Part shown: one piece after another, positions 17,188 to 48,882 of the stretch
Layout: each line of letters starts with the position of its first letter
Numbering within the stretch: position 1 is the first letter of the stretch
NCBI GenBank assembly: GCA_047602885.1
Contig: JBLKOQ010000001.1
Location: 10,016-74,015, forward strand
Reading direction: 5' to 3'
Source: Candidatus Woesearchaeota archaeon
Lineage (GTDB): Archaea; Nanobdellota; Nanobdellia; Woesearchaeales; WAPJ01
DNA length: 64,000 bases
The notes under the pieces: model-generated
Databases searched by the model: none
The model's input: the letters and a program-made list of their open reading frames with translations, nothing else
What the model was told of the DNA's origin: nothing
Program-made: the position numbers and the translations under genes

Positions 17188-17903
17188 GACTCTGTCTTAA
17201 TCTTATCCATAGGAACGCCCATACCCACCAGTATTTGGACAGACAATGATATGAGTCCTTTAGGCCCGCATATAAAATAGATTTTTTCAGCAGGATTACT
17301 AAACATTCTCATAAAATATTTCTCGTTAATTATGCCCTTAACAATAAAGTCATTAATATCAATATCCTGATTAGTAATAAAATGAGTAACCATCAGATTA
17401 TCCTTATGAGCGCAGTATTCCATAAGCTGTTCTCTATAACAAATATCTCCCATAGTCTTATTGCTAAGTAGCAGGAACATTCTATTATTCTTATTATTGT
17501 CAATATAATATTTTATTAGCGACCTATAAGGCACTACTCCCGAGCCTCCTGCTATCATGACAATATCAGAGTCTATAGACTCATCCCTAATATAGGGGAG
17601 TCCCAACGGTCCTAACACTTCTATCTCATCGCCTACATTAAGCTTGAAGAGGGCATGAGTAAAAGAGCCTACTAGCTTGACACTAATCATAATATTGTCC
17701 TCTGTAGGACTAGTGGCAATGCTATAAGACCTCTTCCCAATATCTTCCTGGCCTTTAATAGTACAATTAATAAAATGCCCCGGCCTATAATCGAATAATG
17801 GAGCGCCATCACTAGGAGAGAGTATGAAACTCTTCATATTATGGGTTTCGTCAACAATACTATTAATAGTATAATATTTTTTGGATACAGGATAGCGTTT
17901 CAC
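17178..17903 (-). CDS. FNR-like FAD/NAD(P)-binding oxidoreductase
   Basis: FAD motif RSYSIATSP and NAD(P) motif MIAGGSGVVP; 241 aa. Confidence 0.65.
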   Translation of the reverse strand: MKRYPVSKKYYTINSIVDETHNMKSFILSPSDGAPLFDYRPGHFINCTIKGQEDIGKRSYSIATSPTEDNIMISVKLVGSFTHALFKLNVGDEIEVLGPLGLPYIRDESIDSDIVMIAGGSGVVPYRSLIKYYIDNNKNNRMFLLLSNKTMGDICYREQLMEYCAHKDNLMVTHFITNQDIDINDFIVKGIINEKYFMRMFSNPAEKIYFICGPKGLISLSVQILVGMGVPMDKIKTESWG

Positions 17904-19744: not shown

Positions 19745-19787
19745 TACAAAAATATCATAATAGACTTATAAATACTTCTATCAGAAG

Positions 19788-19922
19788 GGCTCTGTTGCAA
19801 ATCTCAGAAAAAGTGTGCTATGCGCCACCCCGCAGGGGGCATCCCCCGGCACATCAGCGTCAAGCGTGAACGTTCGTTCCCGCTCCAGCTGACGGCTGCC
19901 GCACACTATTTGCAACAGAGCC
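19788..19922. mobile_element. MITE-like element copy 1 (GC-rich core, 15-bp inverted termini GGCTCTGTTGCAAAT, TSD TATCAGAAG)
   Basis: Terminal inverted repeats; direct repeats at 19779-19787 and 19923-19931; about 60% GC island in AT-rich DNA; homologous to the copies at 26981 and 52831. Confidence 0.55.
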
Positions 19923-19940
19923 TATCAGAAGATTCAATCC

Positions 19941-22277
19941 ATGCAGAAAAGGTTTATATACCCTAATAATGTTGATTCTGATATGCCTTCAAAAAAGACT
20001 GTACAGGAACAACTAGATTTTCTAAGGCGGGAGGCAGGTAAGAACAACAGATTATTGGAAAAGGTGCTGTCTCAACAAAAAGAGCAGCATAAGAGAATAG
20101 CTGTATTGGAGAAGAAGGTTGGGAGTCCTAATAAGGATACTGTAATAGATGATTCGCCTACAACATTGAATCAGTATGACAATCAGGAAATACCACAATC
20201 AAGCTCTAGCAGCGTTCCTGTCAGCGCAATACTCCTAATAATATTCGGAGCACTATTGACATTAACAGGAATAGGAGCCCTTATAGGAATACCATTAGTA
20301 GTATGGGGCATTATAATAGTATCCAGAAACCAGGAGCAGGAAGGAAGAGCAGAATCTGTTGAAGAAAAGCCAATAAAAGATGATAATCTTAAGATAACTC
20401 CCAAGCCAGTAGAAGAAAAGCCCAAGACTTCATTAGAAGAAGATGTAGGGATAAAATGGTTTGCCAGAATAGGAATAATAGCATTAGTTATAGGAATAGG
20501 ATTCTTCATAAAATATGCTATAGACATGGAATGGATAGGACACTTGACAAGGATACTGCTAGGAGCATTACTGGGCATAGGAATGATTATGGTAGGAAAG
20601 ATATCAAGCATGAAAGAAAGGTATGAGTTATGGGGCAAGACACTCATGGGAGGAGGCATAGCAGTATTATACTTTGCAGTATACGCATCATACCATTTTG
20701 AGGAGTACAGACAAGCGATAGGAATAGGACAATACACCAACATAGTATTGTTAAGCATCATAGTATTAGTGGCAATATGGCTTTCCATAAGAGACAACAG
20801 CCAGATAATAGCGTCAGAATCATTCTTCTTGGGGTTCCTCACAGCACTACTAAGCACAGAATACACTATAATGACTATGATGTATTGCATACTGCTTGCA
20901 TTAGGAATAGTAATAGTTACAGCATACAAGGGATGGATAGGCATAGGAATAGGAGGAGCGATAGCATCATACATATCATATATTGTATGGGCGTATCCAA
21001 GACAAGAATTCATACTCGGAATAATATTCCTGTCAATACTTTACACTGCATTTACGATACAATCAATAATACTGTCCAAGAAAAAAGAGCTGTCCACTTA
21101 TGGGATGATAATATACATTGCAAACAGCATCACCTTCTTCTTCCTGGGGTATTTGAGGGTAGAAGGGTCGTATCCTGAGCATACAGCATTATTACCATTA
21201 GCACTATTCATAATACACTGGATAATAGCATTATACTACAAGATAAAAGACAATAGGCTGATGAGAGATGCCAGCCTATACTTATCAGTATCATACATTG
21301 TAATGACAGTGTTATTGCACTTCAACAATGATTATATTACATTATTATGGGCTATGATAGCAGTAATAACAGCATATGCGTACAAGAGTTCTAAGATACA
21401 TAGTTTAAGATATTCTGCTTACGCATTATCATTATTAGTATTATTAAAGATACTATTATATGACATAATAAACCTGCAGGCCTATACTCCTACAGATATT
21501 ATTGGCAGCATGAGACTGTGGTCTATGCTAGGAGGAATAGGGGCATTATACATTATTAGGAGTATACTGGCGAGCGATAAAAGCATTAGGGAAGGAAAAG
21601 AAAAAAGTATTATAGAAGTGTATTCGTGGACTGCATTATCATTACTTGTAATAATGATACTGCTAGAGTTTTCAAGCCAATACACATTATTCGTTACAAT
21701 AGCGCTAGGAGCACTGTCATTAGCATTGTTGTTCAACAGCAGAGCCAATAATATGATGCTATACCAGGCTACAGCAGTATCAAGTGTTATGATACTAAAA
21801 ATATTATCATACGATACTCTAACGCTAAAAACATATTCTGAACATGTTCTGCTTGCTGAAACTACGCTGTTGGCATATCTTACAGGAATAACAGTATTAT
21901 ACATTCAGAGCAGAATGCTATTAGGCAAGGAGGGCGATGATGCCATAAGGAAATCATTAGGAATAGGATATTCTTACGCTGCAACACTTCTTGGAGTAGT
22001 AATGATAATGATAGAAATGCAGGGTTACTGGATATCTATAGGATGGAGCATATACGCGCTAATACTAATGGCTGTAGGAATAAGCACTGGCGACAAACAA
22101 TTAAGATTCCAAGGAATAATAGTATTTGGCCTTACAATAATCAAAGTGTTCCTATTCGATACGAGGAACTTAGAGACAATATACAGGACCATAAGCTATA
22201 CCGTGCTAGGCGCACTGCTCCTTGCAGTATCATTCCTCTATGCAAGATACAAGGAGAAGCTAAAAGAAATATTGTAG
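19941..22277 (+). CDS. large polytopic membrane protein with N-terminal cytoplasmic coiled-coil (DUF2339-like architecture); start may be 19983
   Basis: About 20 predicted TM helices after a charged N-terminal segment; 778 aa. Confidence 0.5.
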   Translation: MQKRFIYPNNVDSDMPSKKTVQEQLDFLRREAGKNNRLLEKVLSQQKEQHKRIAVLEKKVGSPNKDTVIDDSPTTLNQYDNQEIPQSSSSSVPVSAILLIIFGALLTLTGIGALIGIPLVVWGIIIVSRNQEQEGRAESVEEKPIKDDNLKITPKPVEEKPKTSLEEDVGIKWFARIGIIALVIGIGFFIKYAIDMEWIGHLTRILLGALLGIGMIMVGKISSMKERYELWGKTLMGGGIAVLYFAVYASYHFEEYRQAIGIGQYTNIVLLSIIVLVAIWLSIRDNSQIIASESFFLGFLTALLSTEYTIMTMMYCILLALGIVIVTAYKGWIGIGIGGAIASYISYIVWAYPRQEFILGIIFLSILYTAFTIQSIILSKKKELSTYGMIIYIANSITFFFLGYLRVEGSYPEHTALLPLALFIIHWIIALYYKIKDNRLMRDASLYLSVSYIVMTVLLHFNNDYITLLWAMIAVITAYAYKSSKIHSLRYSAYALSLLVLLKILLYDIINLQAYTPTDIIGSMRLWSMLGGIGALYIIRSILASDKSIREGKEKSIIEVYSWTALSLLVIMILLEFSSQYTLFVTIALGALSLALLFNSRANNMMLYQATAVSSVMILKILSYDTLTLKTYSEHVLLAETTLLAYLTGITVLYIQSRMLLGKEGDDAIRKSLGIGYSYAATLLGVVMIMIEMQGYWISIGWSIYALILMAVGISTGDKQLRFQGIIVFGLTIIKVFLFDTRNLETIYRTISYTVLGALLLAVSFLYARYKEKLKEIL
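19953..19960 (+). promoter_or_regulatory. TATA box (TTTATATA), suggesting the downstream membrane protein gene starts at the Met at 19983
   Basis: Canonical A/T box 23-30 nt upstream of the ATG at 19983. Confidence 0.3.
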
Positions 22278-35421: not shown

Positions 35422-38400
35422 TTGGGCTTGAAACAAGTTGTAGTGCAAGTAACGATAGTAGTAGTTATAATAGCTGCGCTTATATTCACATTCTTTAGTA
35501 TTGGAGAGCCTACAATTACAGGTTATGCTGTATTTGAGAGCAGTGTTAGTAATGTCAGTTATGACGTGGAAAGGGTAGTGTTGCCACAAGAAACTTATAC
35601 TATTCAGTTGGAAGATAATGTTGTTGTAAGAGGAATAGTAATTAATGGTTATTATATTGCAAGCAAAGATTCTAGTATTATTGCAAGGCTTGATGAAGGG
35701 ACTATTAGTCATGAATTGAGGTTGAGAAGCAATGTTATTACTGGCATGGCTATCGGTGCTGGAGAAGTTGAGAGTGGTATGATAGAAGAAGACTTGGCTA
35801 ATAGGACTTTGTTGAGGTATGGTGATGGTCCTTATGATATCGATAATGATGGAATGGTAGGGAGACAAGGAGCAGTAGACTATTATGTTGAAACTAATGC
35901 TTCTTGTGTATTATGGAGTATTGTAGGGGATGATGTTGACCTATTCTGTCAGGGAACAATAGAATGCTGTGACAGTTATCTATTGGAGAGCATGGATGAC
36001 AATCCCAATTATTTAGTGTTGGATAGGCAAAGAGCAGGTGCTGACAGAGGAGAAGTATTGGCCAAAGCTGACGGTTATGATTTTAGTAGAATGTTGCCTT
36101 ATGATTTTACTGGTGCTGAGGAGAGACTGGTAAGATTGGATGATGTTTGTTTGGGAAGTTGTAATGTTAGGATGCAGAGCAGTAGTATAAGGATAGAGAG
36201 CAGTGCTTATTTGCATATAGACAGGATTATAGTATATTATGATGATTTGCCAGACGATGAGATATTTGATACAGAGGATGGCAACATAATAGAAGAAGTA
36301 TTACCAGAAAAAAGAGTCATAAGAGAAGAGATGATAGAATATATAGTGTATGAGTCAGAAGGAGGTATTATTGGAAGAACCGTCTCAGAACTAAAAAGTC
36401 ATTATGGTCTTAGCAGGGCATCTGAACGTTCAGCAAAGATATTTTCAATGGATTATGAGCATATCAGTGAAGAGGAAGAAACAGAGTATACCGAAGGGAT
36501 TAATGCTCATATAATTAGAGTATCATCAGAGCTTCTAAATCTAGTAACAGAAGAAAGCGTAAGAATCATAATATTAAATGAATCAGGAATATACTCAGAA
36601 TACGCCAATAATTTATCAGAGCTAAACGAAATACTACACTCTAAAGAAGTTATAACAGCTAGTATCGACAGACAAATAGAATTGTTAACACAAGATACTC
36701 TTAATGCATCAGGGTTTATATCAGTATATAATGAGTATGAGGTTTCTGGTTCTGGTGTTCGTGTATGTATTGTAGATACGGGTGTATCGGGTCATGTGGT
36801 TGAGAATATATCATATACTGGTGTCAATGTTCTTGATGGTACCGATGACATAATGGATTACCATGGCCATGGTACTCTTGTTTCGTACCCTTTGATTCGT
36901 GCATTACCTGATGCCCATTATGTGATTGTAAAGGCTTTGGATGATACTGGGATAGGATATGAGTCTGATGTTATTTCTGGATTGGATGCGTGTGCTGAAC
37001 ATGATGTTGATGTTGTTTCTCTTTCTATAGGAGCTGGATTGTATGATGGGTACTGTGATACTAACCTTGTATCAGAGCGTGTGAATGAACTTGTGTCTGA
37101 AGGAGTCTTGGTAGTTTCTGCTGCAGGTAATGAGGCTGGTCCTTATTTGAAGGCTCCTTCATGCGCTTCCTCTGCTCTTGCAGTTATTGCTTACACTGAT
37201 GATTCGTTATGGTATCAGTCTTCATACTTGGAAGGTCATGCAGTATTTGCCGCTCCTGGTGTTGTTGAGACTATTGGTCCTGATGGTTCTGTGGTTTTAT
37301 CTTCTGGTACGTCTATGAGTGTTCCTTTTGTTAGTGCAGCTGCTGGTTTATTGGTTGAGTATACTAATGACACGGGACTAGTGTTACGTAACAGACTGGT
37401 TGGCACAGGTGATCTGCTTGGTGATGAGTTCTTGTTTTCTCGTCTGAATGTTTCGAGGGCTTTTTCGGGTGAGATTACGAATGAGTTGTTGTATAATATT
37501 AGCGAGGGCGTTGAGGTAGAGGGGACTGTATATTATCGTGGTACGAGTTTTATTGCAGGAACTATCACCACAGGAAATGGGCATTCGTGTGGTATTCGTG
37601 CTGTTGATGGTCGTGTTTTGTGCTGGGGTAGGAATAACGTGGGTCAAATTGGCGATGGTACAACTGCAGGTCCTCGTACGAATCCTACTTTAACTACTGA
37701 TACTTCTGCATATACTTTTATTTCATCAGGCGAACAACATTCGTGTGGTATTCGTGCTAATGATTCTCGTGTTTTGTGCTGGGGTAGTAACGGGAATGGT
37801 GTGCTTGGTGATGGTACTACTGTTCAGCGTGAAAATCCTACTTTGATTAATGATTCTTCAGCGTATCTTACACTTGGGTTAGGTCAAGGTCATTCGTGTG
37901 GTATTCGTGCTAATGATTCTCGTGTTTTGTGCTGGGGTTGGAATGGGAATGGTCGACTTGGTGACGGTACGGATGAAGCTCGTTGGAATCCTACATTGAC
38001 TTCTGATACTTCTGCATACAGCGGAATAACTGCAGGTGCCCACTACTCGTGTGGTATTCGTGCTAATGATTCTCGTGTTTTGTGCTGGGGCACTAATAAT
38101 TATGGTCAGCTTGGTGATGGTACAGATGTTGTTCGTTGGAATCCTACATTGACTTCTGATACTTCCGCTTACCTACATGTTTCTGGAGGAGGTTGGCATT
38201 CGTGTGGTATTCGTGCTAGTGATTCTCGTGTTTTGTGCTGGGGTAGGAATAACGTGGGTCAGATTGGCGATGGTACTACCACCACTCCTCGATTGAATCC
38301 CACTTTAACTACTAACACGTCTGCGCATGGTACTGTTTCTGCTGGAAACGATTATTCGTGTGGTATTCGTGTCAATGATTCTCGTGTTTTGTGCTGGGGT

Positions 38401-41400
38401 GCTAATGATTATGGTCGGCTTGGTGATGGTACTACTACAGGTCCTCGTACAAATCCCACTTTGACTGCAGACTCTTCTGCATATGTAGCCGTTTCAGCGG
38501 GGGATTGGCACACTTGTGGTATAAGATCTTACGATGGTCGTGTGTTGTGTTGGGGGTATAACGAGTTCGGTCAGATTGGCGATGGTACCACTACGACTCC
38601 ACGTCAAAATCCAACGCTTACAAGCAACATGGCTCCATTCGCCGAAATTCCTTGGGTCTTTACAACATGCGAAGCAACTGGTCGCACTGGTCCTACTCAA
38701 GGTATGTGTGACGATGCATACGAATACTCTTATCTGAACAATAGTGTAACTGTATCTTCAGGCATACAATCATGGACTGTTCCTGAGACGGGATGGTATA
38801 ATGTTACTGCAGTTGGAGCTCAAGGAGGATACGGTGGGAGAACGGGTGTTGGGGGATACGGCGCTCTCATTTCAGGTGCTTTCTACTTCGAAGAGGGAGA
38901 GACAATCAATGTTCTCGTTGGTCAGAAAGGTGGAGATAACTCGTTTCGACCGGCAGGTGGTGGTGGAAGTGCAGTGTGGAAGGATACTGGAACCGAACTC
39001 CTCATCGTCGCTGGAGGTGGAGGAGCGTATGCAGTTGGAACAACGACCACCTACCAGGACCGAGCACACGCGAGCAACACAACAAGTGGGAAGGATGGAT
39101 TTGGTGCCACGGCTCAGAGCGTGGGTGGAACCGGAGGTCTTGGAGGTGCCGGAACAGGTAACCGAGCCTCTGGTGGTGGAGGATGGTTTACTGATGGTGG
39201 ACAGGGCACGACGGCTGACAGTCGTGGCCGATCCCTCTCAGGAGGGGGTCTTGGAGGTGGTGGTGCTGTAGCTGACGGTGGATTTGGTGGTGGCGGAGCG
39301 ACCGATAGCACGACGACATGGGGTGCTGCTTCTGGTGGTGGTGGGTACTCTGGTGGTGGGGGTGGGTATTCTAACACAAACGATGCTGAAGGAGCTGGGG
39401 GCGGTGGAGGATCATACAATTCTGGGTTGTTCCAGTATAACGTCGGAGGAGAGAACGCTGATCATGGCTTGGTCATTATCGAGCCATACGGTGATGTCTC
39501 ATTACTCACCGTGGGAGTTACTCCTTCTCCCGAAGCGAACGCTACCGATGATCTTCTTGGATATTGTACGAGTGATGTCATCGATGGATTCGACCGGATC
39601 GACTATGAGTGGAGACGTGACGGCATAGTCGAGTACATGGGAACGTACTTTAGAGCAGATACGATCACAGCGCATGAAGCTCACACTTGTGGTATTCGTG
39701 CTAATGATTCTCGTGTGTTATGTTGGGGACGCGCGGGTAGTGGTGAGATTGGGAATGGAAGCAAGCTACCACAAGTGCTTAATCCAACACTCACCTCTGA
39801 TACTGATCCTTACCTTCAAGTGAGCGTCGGATTCACTCATTCGTGTGGTATCCGCTATGACGGAAGAGTGCTCTGCTGGGGAAACAACGCTGAAGGGCAG
39901 TTGGGAACAAACGATACGACTGAACGACTCGTTCCTACTTTGATTGCGGATGATGCTGCCTACCATTCCCTCAGCGCAGGATACCGGATGAATTGTGCGA
40001 TACGTGCTAATGATTCTCGTGTGTTATGTTGGGGTGACAATGTATTCTCTCAACTCGGCAGTGGAGGTGGATCGGTGAGCGTTCCGAGGCTCATCAATGA
40101 TACCGCTTCCTACCTGATGGTTTCCACTTACAAGTACCACGCGTGTGGTATTCGTGCTAATGATTCTCGTGTGTTGTGCTGGGGGATGAACTGGTACGGT
40201 CAGGGTGGTAATGGAACAACTGACGAGTTCGTGTCATCCGAGACTCCGACCCTCACGACCGATAGTTCACCATATGTAATGGTAACAACAGGTGCCTCTC
40301 ATACGTGTGGTATTCGTGCTAGTGATTCTCGCGTGTTGTGCTGGGGTCGTAATAATAATGGGCAGCTTGGAATCGGTTCGAGCGGTACAAATGTCGGTAA
40401 CCCCACAACGACTTCAGATTCATCTGCATATCACTACATAGATGCTGGTTGGCAGTTCTCATGTGGCATCAGATCGTCTGATAATAGAGGTCTTTGTTGG
40501 GGGGATAATGGTGAGGATAAACTTGGTATCGGAACGACCGGTAATCGTGAAAACCCTACACTTATATCTGCTTCGTTTGCGATATCGTTGATTACTGCTG
40601 GTGAACGCCATGGGTGTGTGGTTCGCTCTTCGAATGGGCGTGTGTACTGCTGGGGACAAACTGCTGAAGGACGTACAGGAGATGGGGTAGGTATTGGTAC
40701 TGAGCACACACCGACGCTCACAACAGACACTTCCTCGTATGCGTACTTACCTGCTATTGCCTCTGGCGTGCAGTATAACCTCTCAACACTTGACTCAACG
40801 ATAACGAATGGTGGAGACTCATGGACGTTCTCATGCCGGATTACAGACGGTCGAACGACCTATCCATACGAGGAGAGTGCTACGATAACGATTGCAAACA
40901 TTATTCCGATTTATTCAAAGTTTGATGGTTCAACAACGAACTTTTCTGATGCTAGTGTTGTTCCTGACCTTTCAAGCGTGAGCAATCCGATTCTTGAGAT
41001 ATCCACGTTCGGACGCATCACATGGAAAGGTATGGTAAACGTTCCTAGTTCAGATTATGATTCTCATGTGCATATTGGTTATCGGTACATTTTTGTTAAT
41101 AGTAGCGCGTTGCATTCATCTCATGATTCGGGTTCGAATTTGAGCTTTTATGATACGGGCTTCGTGCATGCTCCTGTCATCCTCAAAGATAGTTCTGTGT
41201 GTGAACAACCCTTGTGTAACATGACTGGATTTGTTGATGGTTACGTGAATTACTCAGTGGCTGGTTTCTCAAACTACACGCTTGATTCTAATAGTCGATT
41301 GGAGATCTGGGATGGTACTGATCCTCAAGGAGGAAATAATTCGTATGAGGTTGGTGAATCGGTGCCTTTCTATGCAAATTATTCGAATCTGACTTCTGGT

Positions 41401-44400
41401 GAACCGATTTCGGGTTCGGGGAACGATTGTGAGATCCAATTTGATACTGGGAGCGGGTATGGGAGTTTTATAGAGATGGAATTTAACGCAACAAGTAACT
41501 TGTACGAGTACAACACCACATTTGGATCTGCAGGGACGTTCAGTTATAACGTGAGTTGCACTAGCACCCAAGGATATGAGAACCTGAGCGTGACTAATGA
41601 GTTCACATACAATCCTGCAAACTGTTTTGACAATTCGACGAGTCCTATACCAATTTGTACATGTACTGATCTTAGCAGGATGTGGGAGAACCTTACAGCA
41701 AACTATGAATTGCAGAATAATATAGACTGTAGTGATACTATTAATTGGAATGATGATGAGGGATGGCTGCCTGTAGGGACAACAGGTACGGGTTTTAGTG
41801 GTACGCTGGATGGGCAGGGATATAATATTACTGACTTGTTCATTGCTCGAAATAATGTTGGTTATCAAGGTTTGTTTGGTCAGTTAACTACAGGAGGAAG
41901 CATTACTGATTTAGGTTTGGTGAATGCGAATATCACCATAAAAGACACACTCAGTATAGTGACTCCATATATTGGGATTCTTGTAGGATATATCGATGGA
42001 GGCAGTGTCTCTGGATCTTATGTCACAAATAGTATTCTCTATAGTGATTTTCCCTCTACTGGTGGTCTTATAGGAGAAATGAGTGGTGGTAGTGTTGTCT
42101 CATCTTCTTTTGTTAGTGGTTCTAGTGTTTCTTCTTCTACTAGTAATGTTGGTGGTCTTATAGGAAGAATGAGTGGTGGTAGTGTGTCATCTTCTTATAC
42201 GGTGGATTCTAGTGTTTCTTCTACTGGTAGTAGTGTTGGTGGTCTTGTAGGATATATGCTGAGTGGTAGTGTTGTTTCATCGTCTTATACTATTGGTTCT
42301 AATGTTTCTTCTACTAGTACTCGGGTTGGTGGTCTCGTAGGAAGAATGTGGAGTGGTTCTAGTATTGTTGATTCTTACAGTACTAGTAATGTTTATGCTC
42401 TTGCAGGAGAAAACTTACAATATCATGGTGGACTAGTAGGACAAAACTATAGGGGAGTGATAAACAATTCTTATAGTACAGGAATAGTTAATAGTACACA
42501 TGATGATAGTGGTGGTTTTGTAGGAAGCGTAGATACAGGAGCTGCGACTTATGGTATGTATGGTAACTTCTGGGATAACCAGACAAGCGGTCGTAGTACT
42601 AGTGCTGGTGATAATGTAACAGGACTTACTACAGCGCAGATGTATAATATCAGTCAGTTCTTAGCGGCAGATTGGAATATTAGTGAGATTAGCGGTTATA
42701 ATAATGAGACTTGGTTTATTGATGATGGTAATGATTATCCTAGATTATGGTTTGAGTTTGATCTTGCTTTATTGGATATTGAGTCTGTAGGCATTATTCC
42801 AAGTCCTTTTGCTTTGGATGATGAGAATCTCGTAGGGTATTGTAGTGCTACTGGTAGTGAGAATTTTACGAGGTTGGATTATTTGTGGTATAAGGATGAT
42901 GTAGTGGAGTATGGGGGTGCTTATTTCAAGGAAGGAAGTATTAGTGCTGGTGGGGAGTTTTCTTGTGGTGTTCGTGCTAATGATTCTCGTTTGTTGTGTT
43001 GGGGTGCTAATTTTGTTGGTAAGTTGGGTATTGGTAATACTACTCATATGTATAGTCCTGTTTTGGTTGATTCTTCTGATGCTTTTTTGAGTGTTTCTGT
43101 GGGTGTTTCTCATTCTTGTGGTGTTCGTGCTAATGATTCTCGTGTTTTGTGTTGGGGGCTAAATAGTGAGGGGCAGTTGGGTATTGGTAATACTACTGAT
43201 ATGTTTAGTCCTGTTTTGGTTGATTCTTCTGATGCTTTTTTGAGTGTTTCTTTAGGTAGTTTTCATTCTTGTGGTGTTCGTGCTAATGATTCTCGTGTTT
43301 TGTGCTGGGGTGGTAATATTTATGGTCAGTTGGGTGTTGGTAATACTACTGATATGTTTAGTCCTGTTTTGGTTGATTCTTCTGATGCTTTTTTGAGTGT
43401 TTCTTTAGGTAGTTTTCATTCTTGTGGTGTTCGTGCTAATGATTCTCGTGTTTTGTGTTGGGGTGGTAATTGGGTTGGTCAGTTGGGTGTTGGTAGCGCT
43501 GTTTATGATTCGTGTTTTGATGGTTATGAATATTACGATTGTAGTTTGAATCCTGTTTTGGTTGATTCTTCTGATGCTTTTTTGAGTGTTATGGTGGGTG
43601 TTTCTCATTCTTGTGGTGTTAGGGCGAGTGATTCTCGTTTGTTGTGTTGGGGTGCTAATGCTAATGGTCAGTTGGGTGTTGGTAATACTACTGATATGTT
43701 TAGTCCTGTTTTGGTTGATTCTTCTGATGCTTTTTTGAGTGTTGGTCTTGGTTTTGGACATTCTTGTGGTGTTAGGGCGAGTGATTCTCGTGTTTTGTGT
43801 TGGGGACGTAATTTTGGAGGTCAGTTGGGTGTTGGTAATACTACTAGTCCTATTATGGTTCCTGTTTTGGTTGATTCTTCTGATGCTTTTTTGAGTGTTG
43901 ATGGTGGTTTTGGTGGTGGTTTTGGTGAGCAGCATACGTGTGGTGTTCGTGCTGTTGATGGTCGTGTTTTGTGTTGGGGTGATGGTTCTTTTGGTGCTTT
44001 GGGAACAGGCAATACTAGTTCTCAGTTGAGTCCGACTCTTACTATTGATTCGAGCAGTTATCTTAGGGGGCTTTCTCCGCAGACGACTTATAATGTTTCT
44101 TTGATAGGGAGTGGGTTGACTAGTTTGGGGGAGGAGTGGAAGCTTAGTTGTCGCGCTGTAAATGTTACTAGTGCGGGGGATTTTGTTAATTCTACTGTTA
44201 CTACGATTGATGAGGGTGAAGAGGGTTTGGATTGTGGTGTTATCGATGAGCCTGGAGAGTATATTATGAATGGCGACCTTGCGGCTACCGGAACTTGTAT
44301 TACTATTAATGTTAGTGATGTTTCATTAGATTGTCAGGGTCATACGATCAACTACTCTACAAACGATGACGAGGGCTACGGTATCCTGATATGGAGCCAG

Positions 44401-47400
44401 AGCGGGACGGTCGAAAACGTGAGTATCGCGAACTGTAACATCATCAAAGAGAGTCCTGGAGGGAGCTCAGGGAGTAGGCGCCCAGCTATCCTCGGATACG
44501 GCTACTCAGGTACTCCTTCAGGAGGTTTCACAAAATCAGGTGATGAGCATACTGTTGAGCAAGTAAATATATCGAACGTTACTATCACGACCGAGGGAGA
44601 TTATGCTCGAGGCATATTTGTCTTAAGTGGTCATACTTGGAGTGTCGAAGATGTCTCTATCACAACGTATGGAGATGATGCCCGAGGAATCTACAGCGAG
44701 AACTCTGATCATTGGAGTCTCAGGAGAGTTGATATCACGACCTTTGGAACTGTAGGGATAGGACTGTATACGATCGATGCAAACCACTACTATCTCAAGG
44801 ACATCGATATCACTGCTGCGAGCGCAGGCATGTGGATCCGCACGGGAAGTTCGAACTGGCGGGCAGAGAACATTTCGATAAATGCTACGCTTCAAGGTAT
44901 CGCGACATCGGACGGAGGTATGGCTCACATGAGTTTTTACAACTCTACGATCCACTCATCAGGAAGCCGGGGATTAGATACCAATCAAGGTACAGATAAC
45001 ATCAGCTTCTACGATTCTATTATCACCGCTCCATCAAGTGACGATGTATACATGCGTCTTGGTGATGCGAGTCGGCGTGTTACGTTCGTCAACGTGACTT
45101 TCAACCCTTCCAGTGTCACGTTCCATGACTCGACCTCAGGATTCCTCGACGTTGGATGGTACGTCGACTTTCTCGTAAACGATACTCTAAGTTATCGAGT
45201 TGAGAATGCTAATATTAGTTGGCAGGATTCTGGTGTTATGAGCAGTTTGAACCCTAACAGTACTGGTTGGAAATTAACTGATAGTGGTGGATTGTCTCTA
45301 AGAAATATATTGTATGAGTACTCGCAGAACCAAACTGCTAGGTACTATCATACTAACTATAGCTTCGACATAAGTAGCCCATCATACGCTTCCCTTGTTG
45401 GAGCGTCTAGGAACTTCACTACAAATACACAATTGGATTTTACTATAGAGCCATTGTCGTTGGAGTGTGGTGTTATTAGCGAGCCTGGCTCTTATGTTAT
45501 GACTACTAATCTTACTGCTACAGGCACGTGTTTCACTATTAATGTTAGTGATGTAATACTGGATTGTCAGGATTATACTATTAATTATTCGACTGCTGAT
45601 GAGGGTTATGGTATTTTGATTTGGAGTCAGTCTTCTAATGTGGATAATGTTACGATACAGAACTGTGTTGTTGTGCAGGGTTCTGGTGAGGGTGATGTGA
45701 ATAGTGCGCGTCCTGGTATTTTGGGTTGGGGTGTTAATAATGGTCCGAGTGGTGGTTTGTCGAGTGTTAGTGGTATTTTTTATGAGGTTACTAATGTTTT
45801 GGTTGTGGATTCTAGTATAGTAACATTGGGTGATCGTTCGGATGCTATTAGGGGTGCGGTTTCGTATGACTGGGATGTTGTGGGTGTGAATGTTTCTACT
45901 GCTGGTCAGCTTGCTTCGGGTGTTTTTGGTACTTTTACGGGGGGTTGGTTGTTGTCTGGTGTTGATTCTTTTACTACCGGTGATAATTCTAGGGGTTTTG
46001 CTAGTTGGGATTCTGTTGATTGGGAGATTGTGGATTCTCGTTCTGAGGTTACTACTTTTTATTCTTATCCTATTCGTGCTGAGGAGGGTTCTCATGGATG
46101 GGTTCTGTCCAATGTTTCTCTTATCTCTGATGGTTTTGAGTCTGATGGGCTTCATGTGATTGATTCGGATAATTGGATGGTTGAGGGTCTTTTTGTTTCA
46201 TCATCGGGCACTCAGGCTGATGCTTTTTATTTAGAGGATTCTGATGGTTGGATGGTTTATGATTCTGATTTGTCTAGTGGGTCTGCGTTTGATGTTGTTC
46301 TTAATCTTAGTGATTCTTCGTATCGTGTTGGTTTTGTGAATACGAGTTTTGATCATTCTAGCGTGTCTCTTCTTACTCCGGGCTGGCTTGATAGGGGTTG
46401 GTGGGTGGATGCGTATGTGAATGATAGTCTTGGCAGTCCTGTAGAGGATGCTAATGTCTCTTGGAATGATGCTGGTATTATTAGTGGGAATCCTAGTAGT
46501 AGTGGTTGGAATGTTACTGATGATAGTGGACTTAGTGTTAGGAATGTCTTGTTTGAATATTCTGAGAATCAAACTGCGAGATATTATAATACTAATTATA
46601 CTATTAATGTTAGTCATGAGGATTATGATGATCTTATAGGAGAGTCAAGGAATTTTACGGGTAATACGCAGTTGAACTTTACTTTTTTGGGTGAGTCTTT
46701 AGAGTGCGGTGTTATTAGTGAGCCTGGCGAGTATGTTATGACTTCTGACTTGTCTGCTGCTGGTACTTGTTTTACTATTAATGTTTCTGATGTTAGTTTG
46801 GATTGTGGGGGTCATACGATTAACTATAGTACTGGTGAGGAGGGTTATGGTATTTTGATTTGGAGCCAGGGTGGGTTGGTTGAGAATGTGAATGTTAGTA
46901 ATTGTAATATTGTTAAGGATAGTGAGGAAGGTAATAGTTCGAGTCTTAGGCCTGCCTTACTTGTTTATGGTCGTAGTGCTGTTCCTAGTGGTTCTATTAG
47001 TGGTATTGCGGGTACTGCTCATTATGTAGATAATGTGTCTATTAATAATGTTAATGCTAGTAGTAAGGGAAATTATAGTAGTGGGATTTTTATAGTGCGA
47101 GGATGGTATTCTTCTATTAGTAATGTTATGGTTGATACTGATGGTAATTGGAGTTTTGGGATATGGGGCGATTACTCTTCTTATTGGAATATTTATAATA
47201 CTAGTATTTTTTCGTTAGGGCTGTTTAATGTTGGTCTGTATGGGGTGGATTCTAATTTTTGGGTTTTAGATAGTTTAAATGTAGATGTTGAGTTCAATGA
47301 TGGTCATGGTATTATTGGTTTTCGGTCAAATTCTTGGATTCTTTATAATGTTACTGTTATTGCTGACGGTTCTACAGTTAGGGGAATATCTCTATGGGAT

Positions 47401-48882
47401 CTTAATAACTGGACTGTTATAGACTCTTTTATTGATAGTACTTTTTATGATATTAATATGGAGTTAGATCATAGTACTCGTCAAGCTTTTTTTATTAATA
47501 CAAGCTTTAATAAGAGTAGTGTGTATTTTACTAATGCTAATGCTGGTTGGCTTAATCGTGGTTGGTGGGTTGATTCGTATGTTAATGATACTATAGGGAA
47601 TCCAATTAGTGGTGCTAATGTGAGTTGGGTGGATAATGGTAGTCTTGCAAGCAATCCTTCTGCTAGTGGTTATAGTTTGACTTTGGTTGATGGGACGGTG
47701 AGGAATGCCATATTCGAATATTCTCAGAACCAGACTCATACGTTTGAGCATAATAATTATACTTTTAATGCGAGCAAGGAAGGATTCTTACATAGTGATA
47801 TTGTTCAAAATATAACTGATAATGCCTTCATTTACTTTACATTAGAAACCGATGACATTGATCCTCCGACATGGTCTGATCCTTGGGATAACAGTACTGA
47901 TACTAGCCCTAGGATTAATGAGAATATAAGGATGAACTTAACACTAAACGATGATGTTGACTTGTTCAGCTATACTTTTAGTTGGAATGGTACTGGTTCA
48001 TGGACTAATGATAGTATACAGTTAATATCAGGCACAGAGCATATTTTAAGCGTTATTAAGCAAGTAGGATTGCCTAGAGACAATACTATAGGATGGAGAG
48101 TATACTTTAATGACAGTGCAGAAAAGACAAACATCTCTGATATATTCACATTCACTGTAAAGAACACTCCTCCTGATGTTCCTATACTAAATTATCCTCT
48201 AAACGACAGTGATATTTACAATAGAACGCCATTATTCAACTGGACGGGATTCGATGCAGACTCTGATGAATTAACATACAACCTCACGATATACTGCATA
48301 GGAGGATGCAGTGCTGACAACAGGCATTATCAAGGAATAACAACTAACGAATTCCAGCTTGAAGAAGAACTCCAGTTCCTATACGATGACGGATACTCAT
48401 ACTTGTGGAGCGTTAATGCATGCGACCAATATGAATGCTCAGAATACTCCCAAAACAACACGTTCACTCTCTCAAGCCTCTTATCAGTCAGATTCACACA
48501 AAACGATTCGGACTTCGGCATGATGCAGCTCGGACAAACCAATAGTACTGAGGATAACAGCCCAAACCCTCTTGTACTGGTAAACGAAGGAAACGTAAAA
48601 GTAAATATTAGCTTCTACGCCCAAACCCCGTTATTTGAAAGAGCTGCACTGCCAAGCCCATTCTTTGAGGCAAGAATAAGGCCATTAATAGGAAATTATG
48701 GCATAGACACTAATACGAGCTGGTTTGACCTGGACGATTCAGAAAACCCTGCTCACATGCTAAGAAAACTAAATTATACAACAGACAATAATGCCACTAT
48801 AGACTTAAGAGTAACAGTTCCTATAGACGAGCCTCCAGCAGAGAGGAGCAGTACTATTACAGCAATGGTGGTGATGTCATGA
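35422..48882 (+). CDS. giant secreted multidomain surface protein (4486 aa): signal anchor, S8 subtilase, RCC1 block 1, ALK-like glycine-rich domain, RCC1 block 2, GLUG repeats, RCC1 block 3, three tandem beta-helix modules, fn3-like C-terminus
   Basis: Uninterrupted 13.46-kb ORF; apparent TTG start (in-frame stop just upstream). Catalytic triad motifs IVDTG / HGHGT / GTSMSVPFVSAAAG. More than 20 copies of an HSCG(I/V)RANDSRVLCWG...G.LG.G motif. Three about 410-aa modules each starting L(D/E)CGVI(D/S)EPG.Y(I/V)M. Confidence 0.85.
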   Translation: MGLKQVVVQVTIVVVIIAALIFTFFSIGEPTITGYAVFESSVSNVSYDVERVVLPQETYTIQLEDNVVVRGIVINGYYIASKDSSIIARLDEGTISHELRLRSNVITGMAIGAGEVESGMIEEDLANRTLLRYGDGPYDIDNDGMVGRQGAVDYYVETNASCVLWSIVGDDVDLFCQGTIECCDSYLLESMDDNPNYLVLDRQRAGADRGEVLAKADGYDFSRMLPYDFTGAEERLVRLDDVCLGSCNVRMQSSSIRIESSAYLHIDRIIVYYDDLPDDEIFDTEDGNIIEEVLPEKRVIREEMIEYIVYESEGGIIGRTVSELKSHYGLSRASERSAKIFSMDYEHISEEEETEYTEGINAHIIRVSSELLNLVTEESVRIIILNESGIYSEYANNLSELNEILHSKEVITASIDRQIELLTQDTLNASGFISVYNEYEVSGSGVRVCIVDTGVSGHVVENISYTGVNVLDGTDDIMDYHGHGTLVSYPLIRALPDAHYVIVKALDDTGIGYESDVISGLDACAEHDVDVVSLSIGAGLYDGYCDTNLVSERVNELVSEGVLVVSAAGNEAGPYLKAPSCASSALAVIAYTDDSLWYQSSYLEGHAVFAAPGVVETIGPDGSVVLSSGTSMSVPFVSAAAGLLVEYTNDTGLVLRNRLVGTGDLLGDEFLFSRLNVSRAFSGEITNELLYNISEGVEVEGTVYYRGTSFIAGTITTGNGHSCGIRAVDGRVLCWGRNNVGQIGDGTTAGPRTNPTLTTDTSAYTFISSGEQHSCGIRANDSRVLCWGSNGNGVLGDGTTVQRENPTLINDSSAYLTLGLGQGHSCGIRANDSRVLCWGWNGNGRLGDGTDEARWNPTLTSDTSAYSGITAGAHYSCGIRANDSRVLCWGTNNYGQLGDGTDVVRWNPTLTSDTSAYLHVSGGGWHSCGIRASDSRVLCWGRNNVGQIGDGTTTTPRLNPTLTTNTSAHGTVSAGNDYSCGIRVNDSRVLCWGANDYGRLGDGTTTGPRTNPTLTADSSAYVAVSAGDWHTCGIRSYDGRVLCWGYNEFGQIGDGTTTTPRQNPTLTSNMAPFAEIPWVFTTCEATGRTGPTQGMCDDAYEYSYLNNSVTVSSGIQSWTVPETGWYNVTAVGAQGGYGGRTGVGGYGALISGAFYFEEGETINVLVGQKGGDNSFRPAGGGGSAVWKDTGTELLIVAGGGGAYAVGTTTTYQDRAHASNTTSGKDGFGATAQSVGGTGGLGGAGTGNRASGGGGWFTDGGQGTTADSRGRSLSGGGLGGGGAVADGGFGGGGATDSTTTWGAASGGGGYSGGGGGYSNTNDAEGAGGGGGSYNSGLFQYNVGGENADHGLVIIEPYGDVSLLTVGVTPSPEANATDDLLGYCTSDVIDGFDRIDYEWRRDGIVEYMGTYFRADTITAHEAHTCGIRANDSRVLCWGRAGSGEIGNGSKLPQVLNPTLTSDTDPYLQVSVGFTHSCGIRYDGRVLCWGNNAEGQLGTNDTTERLVPTLIADDAAYHSLSAGYRMNCAIRANDSRVLCWGDNVFSQLGSGGGSVSVPRLINDTASYLMVSTYKYHACGIRANDSRVLCWGMNWYGQGGNGTTDEFVSSETPTLTTDSSPYVMVTTGASHTCGIRASDSRVLCWGRNNNGQLGIGSSGTNVGNPTTTSDSSAYHYIDAGWQFSCGIRSSDNRGLCWGDNGEDKLGIGTTGNRENPTLISASFAISLITAGERHGCVVRSSNGRVYCWGQTAEGRTGDGVGIGTEHTPTLTTDTSSYAYLPAIASGVQYNLSTLDSTITNGGDSWTFSCRITDGRTTYPYEESATITIANIIPIYSKFDGSTTNFSDASVVPDLSSVSNPILEISTFGRITWKGMVNVPSSDYDSHVHIGYRYIFVNSSALHSSHDSGSNLSFYDTGFVHAPVILKDSSVCEQPLCNMTGFVDGYVNYSVAGFSNYTLDSNSRLEIWDGTDPQGGNNSYEVGESVPFYANYSNLTSGEPISGSGNDCEIQFDTGSGYGSFIEMEFNATSNLYEYNTTFGSAGTFSYNVSCTSTQGYENLSVTNEFTYNPANCFDNSTSPIPICTCTDLSRMWENLTANYELQNNIDCSDTINWNDDEGWLPVGTTGTGFSGTLDGQGYNITDLFIARNNVGYQGLFGQLTTGGSITDLGLVNANITIKDTLSIVTPYIGILVGYIDGGSVSGSYVTNSILYSDFPSTGGLIGEMSGGSVVSSSFVSGSSVSSSTSNVGGLIGRMSGGSVSSSYTVDSSVSSTGSSVGGLVGYMLSGSVVSSSYTIGSNVSSTSTRVGGLVGRMWSGSSIVDSYSTSNVYALAGENLQYHGGLVGQNYRGVINNSYSTGIVNSTHDDSGGFVGSVDTGAATYGMYGNFWDNQTSGRSTSAGDNVTGLTTAQMYNISQFLAADWNISEISGYNNETWFIDDGNDYPRLWFEFDLALLDIESVGIIPSPFALDDENLVGYCSATGSENFTRLDYLWYKDDVVEYGGAYFKEGSISAGGEFSCGVRANDSRLLCWGANFVGKLGIGNTTHMYSPVLVDSSDAFLSVSVGVSHSCGVRANDSRVLCWGLNSEGQLGIGNTTDMFSPVLVDSSDAFLSVSLGSFHSCGVRANDSRVLCWGGNIYGQLGVGNTTDMFSPVLVDSSDAFLSVSLGSFHSCGVRANDSRVLCWGGNWVGQLGVGSAVYDSCFDGYEYYDCSLNPVLVDSSDAFLSVMVGVSHSCGVRASDSRLLCWGANANGQLGVGNTTDMFSPVLVDSSDAFLSVGLGFGHSCGVRASDSRVLCWGRNFGGQLGVGNTTSPIMVPVLVDSSDAFLSVDGGFGGGFGEQHTCGVRAVDGRVLCWGDGSFGALGTGNTSSQLSPTLTIDSSSYLRGLSPQTTYNVSLIGSGLTSLGEEWKLSCRAVNVTSAGDFVNSTVTTIDEGEEGLDCGVIDEPGEYIMNGDLAATGTCITINVSDVSLDCQGHTINYSTNDDEGYGILIWSQSGTVENVSIANCNIIKESPGGSSGSRRPAILGYGYSGTPSGGFTKSGDEHTVEQVNISNVTITTEGDYARGIFVLSGHTWSVEDVSITTYGDDARGIYSENSDHWSLRRVDITTFGTVGIGLYTIDANHYYLKDIDITAASAGMWIRTGSSNWRAENISINATLQGIATSDGGMAHMSFYNSTIHSSGSRGLDTNQGTDNISFYDSIITAPSSDDVYMRLGDASRRVTFVNVTFNPSSVTFHDSTSGFLDVGWYVDFLVNDTLSYRVENANISWQDSGVMSSLNPNSTGWKLTDSGGLSLRNILYEYSQNQTARYYHTNYSFDISSPSYASLVGASRNFTTNTQLDFTIEPLSLECGVISEPGSYVMTTNLTATGTCFTINVSDVILDCQDYTINYSTADEGYGILIWSQSSNVDNVTIQNCVVVQGSGEGDVNSARPGILGWGVNNGPSGGLSSVSGIFYEVTNVLVVDSSIVTLGDRSDAIRGAVSYDWDVVGVNVSTAGQLASGVFGTFTGGWLLSGVDSFTTGDNSRGFASWDSVDWEIVDSRSEVTTFYSYPIRAEEGSHGWVLSNVSLISDGFESDGLHVIDSDNWMVEGLFVSSSGTQADAFYLEDSDGWMVYDSDLSSGSAFDVVLNLSDSSYRVGFVNTSFDHSSVSLLTPGWLDRGWWVDAYVNDSLGSPVEDANVSWNDAGIISGNPSSSGWNVTDDSGLSVRNVLFEYSENQTARYYNTNYTINVSHEDYDDLIGESRNFTGNTQLNFTFLGESLECGVISEPGEYVMTSDLSAAGTCFTINVSDVSLDCGGHTINYSTGEEGYGILIWSQGGLVENVNVSNCNIVKDSEEGNSSSLRPALLVYGRSAVPSGSISGIAGTAHYVDNVSINNVNASSKGNYSSGIFIVRGWYSSISNVMVDTDGNWSFGIWGDYSSYWNIYNTSIFSLGLFNVGLYGVDSNFWVLDSLNVDVEFNDGHGIIGFRSNSWILYNVTVIADGSTVRGISLWDLNNWTVIDSFIDSTFYDINMELDHSTRQAFFINTSFNKSSVYFTNANAGWLNRGWWVDSYVNDTIGNPISGANVSWVDNGSLASNPSASGYSLTLVDGTVRNAIFEYSQNQTHTFEHNNYTFNASKEGFLHSDIVQNITDNAFIYFTLETDDIDPPTWSDPWDNSTDTSPRINENIRMNLTLNDDVDLFSYTFSWNGTGSWTNDSIQLISGTEHILSVIKQVGLPRDNTIGWRVYFNDSAEKTNISDIFTFTVKNTPPDVPILNYPLNDSDIYNRTPLFNWTGFDADSDELTYNLTIYCIGGCSADNRHYQGITTNEFQLEEELQFLYDDGYSYLWSVNACDQYECSEYSQNNTFTLSSLLSVRFTQNDSDFGMMQLGQTNSTEDNSPNPLVLVNEGNVKVNISFYAQTPLFERAALPSPFFEARIRPLIGNYGIDTNTSWFDLDDSENPAHMLRKLNYTTDNNATIDLRVTVPIDEPPAERSSTITAMVVMS
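36700..37450 (+). other. subtilisin-like S8 peptidase domain within the giant protein
   Basis: Asp near 36775 (CIVDTG), His at 36868-36870 (HGHGT), Ser at 37312-37314 (GTSMS). Confidence 0.7.
37560..38620 (+). repeat. RCC1 block 1: seven tandem about 150-156-bp repeats (CATTCGTGTGGTATTCGTGCTAATGATTCTCGTGTTTTGTGCTGGGGT core), CGT/GGT/GTT codon regime
   Basis: Core recurs at 37582, 37738, 37891, 38041, 38206, 38352, 38509. Confidence 0.75.
38740..39500 (+). other. glycine-rich domain resembling the ALK/LTK-type glycine-rich domain (Pfam Gly_rich-like): VLVGQKGG ... LLIVAGGGGAY plus poly-Gly tracts
   Basis: Motifs INVLVGQKGGD, GGGGSAVW, LLIVAGGGGAYA, multiple GGGG(Y/S); GC-richer codon regime. 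Confidence 0.45.
39530..40740 (+). other. RCC1 block 2 (about 8 repeats) preceded by a linker homologous to the one before block 3; GC-richer codon regime
   Basis: Repeats HTCGIRANDSRVLCWG ...; linker VTPSPEANATDDLLGYCTSD ... parallels IIPSPFALDDENLVGYCSAT ... at 42790. Confidence 0.6.
41790..42750 (+). other. GLUG-motif repeat region (GGL(I/V)G(R/E/Y)M(S/L/W)GGSV ... x6)
   Basis: Repeated VGGLIGRMSGGSVSSS-type units about 25 aa long; opening GTLDGQGYNITDLF is typical of GLUG domains. Confidence 0.5.
42950..44010 (+). repeat. RCC1 block 3: seven tandem about 153-180-bp repeats; units at 43216-43371 and 43372-43527 are nearly identical
   Basis: CATTCTTGTGGTGTTCGTGC core at 42958, 43111, 43264, 43426, 43606, 43759, 43934; GATTCTTCTGATGCTTTTTTGAGTGTT recurs 6 times. 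Confidence 0.75.
44200..47830 (+). other. three tandem about 1.2-kb homologous modules (A 44200-45430, B 45430-46690, C 46690-47830) with right-handed beta-helix (pectate-lyase-like) character
   Basis: Each begins L(D/E)CGVI(D/S)EPG(E/S)Y(I/V)M ... TINVSDV(S/I)LDC(Q/G)(G/D)(H/Y)TINYST ... EGYGILIWSQ and ends ... ARYY(H/N)TNY. Module A is in the GC-richer regime, B and C in the GT-rich regime. Confidence 0.55.

Follow-up and report, generated by a model that had tools for sequence, protein, structure and literature searches.

When a single gene changes its codon usage several times along its length, the question arises whether these changes are real and, if so, what process could have left them. 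Such a gene lies on the forward (+) strand of the 64,000-nucleotide (nt) stretch of a Candidatus Woesearchaeota archaeon analysed here (contig JBLKOQ010000001.1, positions 10,016 to 74,015; hereafter the window), where positions 35422-48882 form one unbroken open reading frame (ORF) of 4486 aa. Its product begins with a hydrophobic anchor or signal, carries numerous NxS/T sequons and is predicted to be a cell-surface protein. An earlier note, made from the letters of the sequence, had described this giant gene as a mosaic of codon-usage regimes, and had proposed either modular acquisition or a collapsed multi-strain assembly. The mosaic proved to be real. As to its origin, modular acquisition or replacement of segments appears to be the best-supported reading, in part and by indirect evidence. 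We consider the chances about even that the mosaic is the footprint of a recombinational patchwork in a giant modular surface-protein gene.

Recursive Jensen-Shannon segmentation of the third-position bases, with 50 shuffles as the null, placed seven change points within the gene, at 36727, 38449, 42010, 42670, 44242, 45433 and 48016 (G 49-176, against a shuffle maximum of 19.4). Local refinement gave 36727, 38599, 42103, 44347, 45559 and 48016. The blocks between them are listed in Table 1 with the shares of the four bases at third codon positions (A3, C3, G3 and T3). Most of the boundaries proposed before (36750, 38600, 44300/44340 and 45430) lie within 0-25 nt of computed ones, but 41640 was set about 370-460 nt and 47820 about 200 nt too early, both at gradual transitions. 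The T-ending blocks (T-type hereafter) have T3 0.61-0.73, A3 0.02-0.13 (but.20 in GT2a) and C3 0.02-0.09, with GT2b as the most extreme (T3 locally up to 0.82, A3 0.02-0.04). In their two-fold codons the pyrimidine class ends in T (above 0.9) and the purine class in G (0.75-0.88), while in four-fold codons T is preferred over G, and A and C are avoided. Pyrimidine-ending codons make up.70-.75 in these blocks and.61-.64 in the balanced blocks, versus.38 in + strand genes.

These differences persisted when only synonymous codons were compared. Homogeneity of synonymous usage between the GT and GC blocks was strongly rejected (G=485, df 41, p about 1e-76), also with non-repetitive domains only (p about 1e-41). 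Synonymous usage in the last 288 codons was indistinguishable from that of the + strand genes (p about 0.6), as had been claimed for the C-terminus, but the same claim did not hold for the N-terminus, since the 435 N-terminal codons are intermediate between + and - strand genes. Across the whole window (1-64000), + strand genes have A3.43 and T3.18, and - strand genes T3.40 and A3.25. The + strand is thus A-rich in genes of both orientations, and synonymous usage of + and - strand genes differs with p about 1e-197. The T-type blocks therefore have a polarity contrary to that of the strand around them, and their skew also exceeds that of the - strand genes in the window (p about 1e-147).

Table 1. 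Blocks of the giant gene and the gene that follows it, with third-position base shares of the segments
Feature	Coordinates	Strand	Content	A3	C3	G3	T3
N-terminal block	35422..36726	+	transmembrane segment, conserved N-domain (aa ~40-280), acidic linker	.36	.10	.16	.38
GT1, T-ending	36727..38598	+	subtilase S8 (from aa 437) and RCC1 propeller R1, blades 1-6	.13	.09	.17	.61
GC1, balanced	38599..42009	+	Gly-rich domain, RCC1 propeller R2, unassigned region	.20	.20	.20	.41
GT2a, T-ending	42010..42669	+	GLUG-motif repeats, 90-nt period from 42060	.20	.07	.10	.63
GT2b, most extreme T-ending	42670..44346	+	RCC1 R3 supermodule and first 40 codons of M1	.04	.02	.21	.73
GC2, C-enriched patch	44347..45432	+	body of module M1 (block values A.19, C.30, G.18, T.34)	.18	.28	.18	.36
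GT3, T-ending	45433..48015	+	M2, M3 and first ~55 codons of the C-terminal domain	.07	.05	.21	.66
Host-like end of C-terminal domain	48016..48879	+	domain begins ~47848; codon usage like + strand genes	.35	.27	.13	.25
Downstream partner gene, ACMXYL_00270	48879..50057	+	392 aa; overlaps giant-gene stop (ATGA); + strand-typical codons	.52			

The codons that had been named as markers of the regimes fared unevenly. CGT had been called essentially absent outside the giant gene, where we found it rare (34 of 723 Arg codons, with - strand genes holding 32). Within the giant gene, roughly one CGT codon in two belongs to a 42-nt RCC1 core that is repeated 21 times, and because of this repetition the CGT counts in the giant gene are not independent. 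Outside the RCC1 cores CGT remains enriched in GT1 (11/16) as well as GT3 (8/21), whereas GT2b shows no such enrichment (0/4). In GT1 as a whole it accounts for 0.75 of the Arg codons; Arg in GC1 is mostly CGN, distributed over all four CGN codons, and in the N-terminal block 24 of 25 Arg codons are AGR. Among the codons attributed to the GC blocks, ACG, CTC and CGA are enriched, but GGC is not (0.07 and 0.13, versus 0.17-0.26 in other genes).

Pfam matches and local comparisons gave the domain order of the protein: a hydrophobic segment and the conserved N-domain (together aa 1 to ~280), then an acidic linker, the subtilase S8 domain (Peptidase_S8, E 3e-20 at aa ~437-650), an RCC1 propeller (R1), a Gly-rich domain, a second RCC1 propeller (R2), an unassigned region, GLUG repeats, an RCC1 propeller supermodule (R3), three beta-helix-like modules (M1, aa 2936-3346; M2, aa 3347-3759; M3, aa 3760 to ~4140) and a conserved C-terminal domain. 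An NCBIfam scan provided no names for the unassigned domains, and neither Pfam nor NCBIfam matched a restriction-endonuclease domain anywhere in the giant protein. The coincidence of regime and domain boundaries that the earlier note had pointed out was borne out, with change points at or within about 55 codons of a domain boundary. The first one falls at aa 436, with the subtilase starting at aa 437; the others fall at the end of propeller R1, at the GLUG start (42060), in conserved module motifs, and about 55 codons into the C-terminal domain.

The clearest view of the mosaic is offered by the three paralogous modules. M1, M2 and M3 are equidistant, with a pairwise protein identity of about 44%, yet M1 alone is written in a different codon regime (M1 vs M2+M3, p about 1e-31; M2 vs M3, not significant). 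In columns with identical residues, the A- and C-ending codons of M1 are T-ending in M2 and M3. The shared peptide INYST..EGYGILIWSQ, for instance, is encoded as ATC AAC TAC..GGC TAC GGT ATC CTG ATA in M1 and as ATT AAT TAT..GGT TAT GGT ATT TTG ATT in M2 and M3. The mosaic is therefore independent of the encoded protein sequence. At about 44% amino-acid identity the synonymous sites of the three modules are saturated, and the contrast between M1 and M2/M3 implies that modules so diverged cannot have co-evolved adjacently under one pressure. Moreover, the switch at 44347 lies inside the conserved module-start motif, between ...VSDVSLDCQGHT and INYST..., directly after a 20-mer common to M2, which is what a homologous crossover would leave. 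The M1 patch ends between 45433 and 45559 and is roughly one module period long. Junction 44347, and possibly 45559, thus sits in a conserved module motif beside a shared 20-mer; the other junctions show no shared sequence. M1 is also distinctive in its use of ATC (0.72) and AAC (0.83), both above the T-type blocks as well as the host. Since this usage exceeds both, simple mixing or amelioration was rejected as a full account of M1.

A second line of evidence came from relatives. With the conserved C-terminal domain as a probe, we collected 84 related loci (numbered with L) from Woesearchaeota, Pacearchaeota and Nanoarchaeota metagenome-assembled genomes (MAGs) and from metagenomes; a metagenome scan with the module-head alignment returned chance pattern matches only. 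The related loci carry similar giant genes of 2000-4600 aa, most of them compositionally homogeneous, which makes the seven change points of the window unusual. The protein P0017, from another Woesearchaeota MAG, is 82-95% identical to the giant protein over aa 41-240 and 10-54% identical downstream (protein level); its subtilase is followed directly by an R3-like propeller, that is, by another domain order. In L001 the N-domain and subtilase head gene, whose N-terminus (ORF 16873-20289) is homologous to the window's N-terminal block, runs straight into beta-helix modules, and the gene for the C-terminal domain overlaps the end of another giant gene. Together with the codon contrast between paralogs, the identity drop in P0017 and the shuffled domains speak for the modular acquisition or replacement that the earlier note had proposed; its donors, however, did not appear. 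All per-segment best matches fall within Woesearchaeota and other DPANN archaea, so this check pointed to no distinct donors.

T-type sequence was not confined to the window. In L009 (a JGI metagenome) the modules, with T3 0.60-0.83 (island T3.69), give way to A-rich usage in the fused C-terminal domain, like that of the A-rich neighbours. In L010 (an NCBI MAG with a C3-rich background) the module end has A3 0.03 and T3 0.43, and the C-domain gene is host-like. The GC-rich relative L001 has an island of T3.57-.72 and A3 0.00 against a background T3 of.09. This island (17773-18250) covers about 150 codons over the junction of N-domain and subtilase with T3 0.5-0.72, includes about 125 consecutive codons without an A-ending one, and is homologous in position to the start of the window's first T-type block; the homologous modules in L001 use C-ending codons throughout. 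Further islands were seen in L004 (T3.62, background.15), L076 (.72 vs.22) and L091 (.65), and L084 also has a T3-rich, A3-poor one. The islands cover domains that are unrelated to each other (subtilase, RCC1, GLUG, beta-helix modules, Ig-like and fibre-like repeats) and occur over background third-position G+C (GC3) from 0.2 to 0.8, with island GC3 following host GC3. Windows with third-position G+T of at least 0.85 numbered 60/2092 in giant ORFs versus 1/1353 in small ORFs, and, besides the uniformly skewed contig L058, each flagged window was in a very long surface-protein ORF (at least 957 aa). P0009, a second module-bearing gene of the same MAG, has T3.52 against about.30 in its neighbours. 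A separate skew was noted in L032/L075 (2027-10771) and L034 (2-1678), whose giant genes have C3 0.62-0.74 and G3 0.01-0.07 next to neighbours with C3 about 0.25.

What kind of pressure could write such sequence can be read in part from the first two codon positions. Codons with G or T at both of these positions rise with third-position G+T, within the module and RCC1 families as well as between the T-rich subtilase and its L001 ortholog. First- and second-position differences towards G/T numbered 91 vs 39 in the subtilase comparison and 151 vs 94 in M2 against M1, whereas they are balanced in the C-terminal domain. Since synonymous and amino-acid usage shift in the same way, the pressure would be a directional one on the DNA (mutation or DNA-level selection) rather than codon selection at the level of tRNAs. 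A change from host-like to T-type usage would raise pyrimidine-ending codons from 0.38 to 0.70-0.75, and because this share must rise, transitions alone cannot produce T-type from host-like sequence. Several forms of selection were considered and rejected. Selection for unstructured, G+U-rich mRNA does not fit, as the T-blocks fold with -28 to -35 kcal per 150 nt, no weaker than other genes (-25 to -31). Counts of oligo-T terminators and G-runs equal those of synonymous shuffles, which argues against selection against the former or for the latter. Avoidance of palindromes or restriction sites fails because GT2b alone is depleted, while GT1, GT2a and GT3 are not. Of note, the coding strand has ten runs of at least six T in 42670-48015 (six in GT2b and four in GT3), and T runs can serve as archaeal termination signals.

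A recombinational patchwork would bring these observations together as follows. The conserved C-terminal end of the gene would have been inherited vertically and have come to equilibrium with the A-rich + strand around it; the N-terminal end, also conserved, is nearer to host usage although intermediate. The variable middle would have been built from blocks that evolved under another directional pressure, leading to a G+T-rich coding strand. In composition these blocks resemble the T-rich strand of strongly skewed genomes in this group, of which L058 (T3 about.58, A3.12 and C3.06 over all genes) and L038 (third-position G+T.75 vs.30 by strand) may represent possible sources; L041, like L058, is extreme too. 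Homologous recombination at motifs that the modules conserve would then have brought the blocks together and patched them afterwards. The balanced blocks could be partly re-equilibrated T-type sequence, in which pyrimidine endings are still high and Arg is spread over the CGN codons, but re-equilibration alone does not fit the strong ATC and AAC usage of M1. That recombination or horizontal exchange, and not a local process, made the blocks is what we infer, as are the order of these events and the sources of the blocks.

Several points weigh against this patchwork. No donor was found, every block having its best matches among DPANN proteins at 30-55% identity, and comparison of the giant-gene blocks with the fetched loci gave no DNA match above about 72%, on which ground recent transfer among these loci was rejected as well. 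The T-ending state occupies the last modules before the C-terminal domain in the window, in L009 and in L010, whose genome compositions are very different, and on account of this recurrence at an equivalent position the notion of different donors is perhaps too simple; the composition may instead move along with the variable modules or be imposed upon them. With a protein identity of only 35-54% between these three loci, the T-state must have persisted or been repeatedly renewed. In addition, none of the genome-wide backgrounds that we saw (A3 at least 0.10, in L058) is as extreme as the islands (A3 0.00-0.04), and windows with G+T of at least 0.85 are found almost only in giant ORFs. The recurrence in position, the extremeness and the restriction to giant ORFs fit a process tied to the gene at least as well as repeated import. 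Other sources were sought and rejected: IMG/VR contained no relatives of M2-M3 or R3, which speaks against a viral origin, and no copy of any giant-gene segment occurs elsewhere in the window that could act as a nearby silent donor cassette.

A process acting in place is therefore the alternative that survives best, and we regard it as possible, though distinctly less probable than the patchwork. Here a local force would enrich G and T on the coding strand of the variable modules, for example through strand-asymmetric mutation (a coding strand left single-stranded by R-loops or recombination intermediates, or targeted hypermutation) or through DNA-level selection or drive, such as recombinases that favour G+T-rich strands; the body of M1 and GC1, which lack the signature, would be recent arrivals. 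Such a force would explain why sharp T3-rich, A3-poor islands occur in giant genes of independent lineages at any background GC3 and over unrelated domain types, why they are nearly exclusive to giant ORFs, why their GC3 tracks that of the host, and why amino-acid usage shifts in the same direction. In the orthologous pair L004/L001 the island is present in L004 only and coincides with the most diverged part of the protein, where identity falls from ~0.45-0.5 to 0.2-0.35, and the 42-nt RCC1 core that is identical in three separate propellers of the window suggests gene conversion. However, the bias is missing from the N- and C-terminal regions, which are transcribed together with the biased blocks; this rules out a simple transcription-coupled effect, and M1 would have to remain untouched between two extreme blocks, with the switch inside a motif. 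Deamination-type transitions would be insufficient for the rise from.38 to.70-.75, which would call for A>T change on a massive scale. Besides the giant gene, the window has 41 ORFs of at least 150 aa that were scanned with Pfam, and these include no reverse transcriptase, integrase or deaminase-like gene. The window holds no silent cassettes, and the island of L004 shows no stronger bias at first and second positions than the sequence around it. The bolder version, in which a locus-targeted, strand-asymmetric and previously undescribed mechanism (hypermutation, or G+T-biased conversion or drive) erases A- and C-ending codons in the variable regions of DPANN giant genes and speeds their protein divergence, is more doubtful still, and we put it forward tentatively.

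Far less probable than either is that translational selection favoured T-ending codons in order to tune decoding speed or tRNA use in beta-rich secreted modules. The bias is indeed domain-specific, and it is present in homologous modules of relatives and in P0009. NNT and NNC codons are normally read by the same G34 tRNA in archaea (the window itself contains no tRNA genes), yet T exceeds C by ~15:1 in two-fold codons, and the preference for G over A in Glu, Gln and Lys codons indicates avoidance of A and C and not a match to tRNAs. Furthermore, M1 and propeller R2 are without the bias, codons in the homologous modules of L001 end in C, and amino-acid composition shifts too.

Slightly less probable again is an assembly artefact, in which a repetitive gene would have been pieced together or collapsed from contigs of more than one strain or species. 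R3 contains exact repeats of at least 60 nt, and two Logan assemblies of the same population (SRR32456880 and SRR32456869; L006 and L007), identical in sequence, both start at 48072, only 56 nt past the last change point. No repeated k-mer explains this break, and strain variation upstream is a possible cause. Against an artefact, the ORF runs unbroken through 4486 codons and keeps its frame at all seven junctions. At five of them no k-mer of 17 nt or longer recurs elsewhere, and a 20-mer is all that is shared at the two M1 junctions. The succession of T-rich modules and a host-like C-domain is seen also in the unrelated assemblies L009 and L010, and mosaics in L004, L076 and L091. A chimeric assembly is thus unlikely, and the collapsed multi-strain assembly that the earlier note had entertained finds no support, given the intact ORF, the scarcity of repeats at the junctions and the same pattern in independent assemblies. 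Finally, the view that a Gly-, Val-, Ser- and Phe-rich protein simply yields G+T-rich DNA has a negligible chance of being right: it accounts for the GC peak at 38800-39400, which comes mostly from first and second positions of Gly codons (GC3 of the supposedly GC-richer GC1 is only 0.40), and for the purine-ending "islands" of L053 and L039, which are Lys/Glu-rich coiled coils and were discarded as an amino-acid artefact, but for the T-ending and C-enriched blocks it is refuted by the overwhelming synonymous-only tests and by identical paralog residues that use different codons.

Within the patchwork the RCC1 propellers carry a finer pattern of their own. Their 42-nt core (TGT GGT ATT/GTT CGT GCT AAT GAT TCT CGT GTN TTG TGY TGG GG) occurs in 21 blades (37580-44003) and is nearly identical at synonymous sites among three propellers separated by kilobases. 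Even in R2, which is otherwise not T-type, the core is of T-type in four of the seven blades. The closing blades use the host-type codons ATA and AGA. This uniformity suggests short-tract gene conversion or a very recent spread of one blade type. R1 is built of 153-nt units (37571-38484), and the tandem 153-nt units in GT2b are near-identical. Between 43184 and 43740, exact repeats of at least 60 nt occur three times within R3, where 153-nt units are up to 91% identical; because of these repeats the number of R3 blades may be unreliable in a short-read assembly.

The gene has an otherwise ordinary setting. Its neighbours are ordinary chromosomal genes, among them one (62130-63734) in which the PriS and PriL primase domains are joined in a single ORF, a fusion known from Nanoarchaeota-type DPANN archaea. 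This primase and the gene downstream of the giant gene match proteins of an NCBI Candidatus Woesearchaeota MAG (locus tags ACMXYL_). For the giant protein, queried under two possible start codons, no identical record was found. Across Woesearchaeota, Pacearchaeota and Nanoarchaeota, the C-terminal domain and the ~390-aa protein that follows form a widely conserved gene pair 3' of giant surface-protein genes; the partner gene lies 3' of the domain in about 50 related loci, mostly as the very next gene. The domain itself is fused to the giant gene in the window and in L009. In L001, L004 and L010 it stands as a gene of its own, of ~500 aa, which has its own signal as well as a Cys-rich region. 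Inside the giant gene three antisense (-) ORFs of 176-257 aa are open (41269-41868, 43405-43935 and 45382-46155), all in the frame whose first codon position is opposite the sense third position. Since depletion of A3 leaves no antisense T at position 1, and hence no stops, we consider them by-products and not genes.

How does this compare with known systems? Mosaic surface and cell-wall genes that arise by intragenic homologous recombination are familiar from pneumococcal pbp genes, Neisseria and streptococcal surface-protein genes. The giant gene shares with pbp-type mosaics the in-frame blocks of different history, the abrupt drop in identity, the variable middle between conserved ends and, at one junction and possibly a second, a switch at conserved sequence that may mark a crossover. 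It differs in that its blocks are known by their extreme synonymous composition and not by donor alleles, and in that this composition recurs in distant relatives. Replication strand asymmetry gives G+T-rich leading strands, and a comparable H-strand bias is seen in animal mitochondria. The T-blocks are similar in their T-dominant coding strand with moderate G, little A and C, and a knock-on shift in amino acids, but they are opposite to the local + strand polarity, make up part of one gene and have sharp borders. Diversity-generating retroelements are common in DPANN archaea and, like the present case, involve adenine loss in variable regions of surface proteins. The tracts here, however, measure 0.5-3 kb against about 0.1 kb, with C depleted as well and T enriched. 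Such an element, or other mobile-element machinery, was rejected, as the window ORFs scanned contain no reverse transcriptase, integrase or transposase and the window has no template repeat. In the literature that we searched, neither codon mosaics nor T-rich islands are described for giant genes of DPANN archaea. In overall build the protein resembles the SPEARE giant surface proteins of Nanohaloarchaeota (PMC6642349): it is very large, comes from a DPANN archaeon, and combines an anchor at the N-terminus with a serine-protease domain and numerous repeats of the adhesion type. Unlike SPEARE proteins, it has no restriction-endonuclease domain that Pfam could find, and its domain set is one of RCC1, GLUG, beta-helix and C-domain.

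On the practical side, T-type blocks can mislead composition-based binning, the detection of horizontal transfer and also gene callers, since depletion of A3 opens long antisense ORFs. DPANN archaea rely on contact with host cells, and giant surface proteins are prime candidates for mediating it. Codon composition labels the blocks of such genes, and so offers a cheap way to read how their variable regions are built and renewed and to find equivalents in other genomes. If a targeted mutational or recombinational process, and not repeated exchange, turned out to be responsible, it would represent a new route to surface diversification in archaea. With a mechanism acting in place, the mosaic would show which modules that mechanism had reached and how long each had been under its influence.

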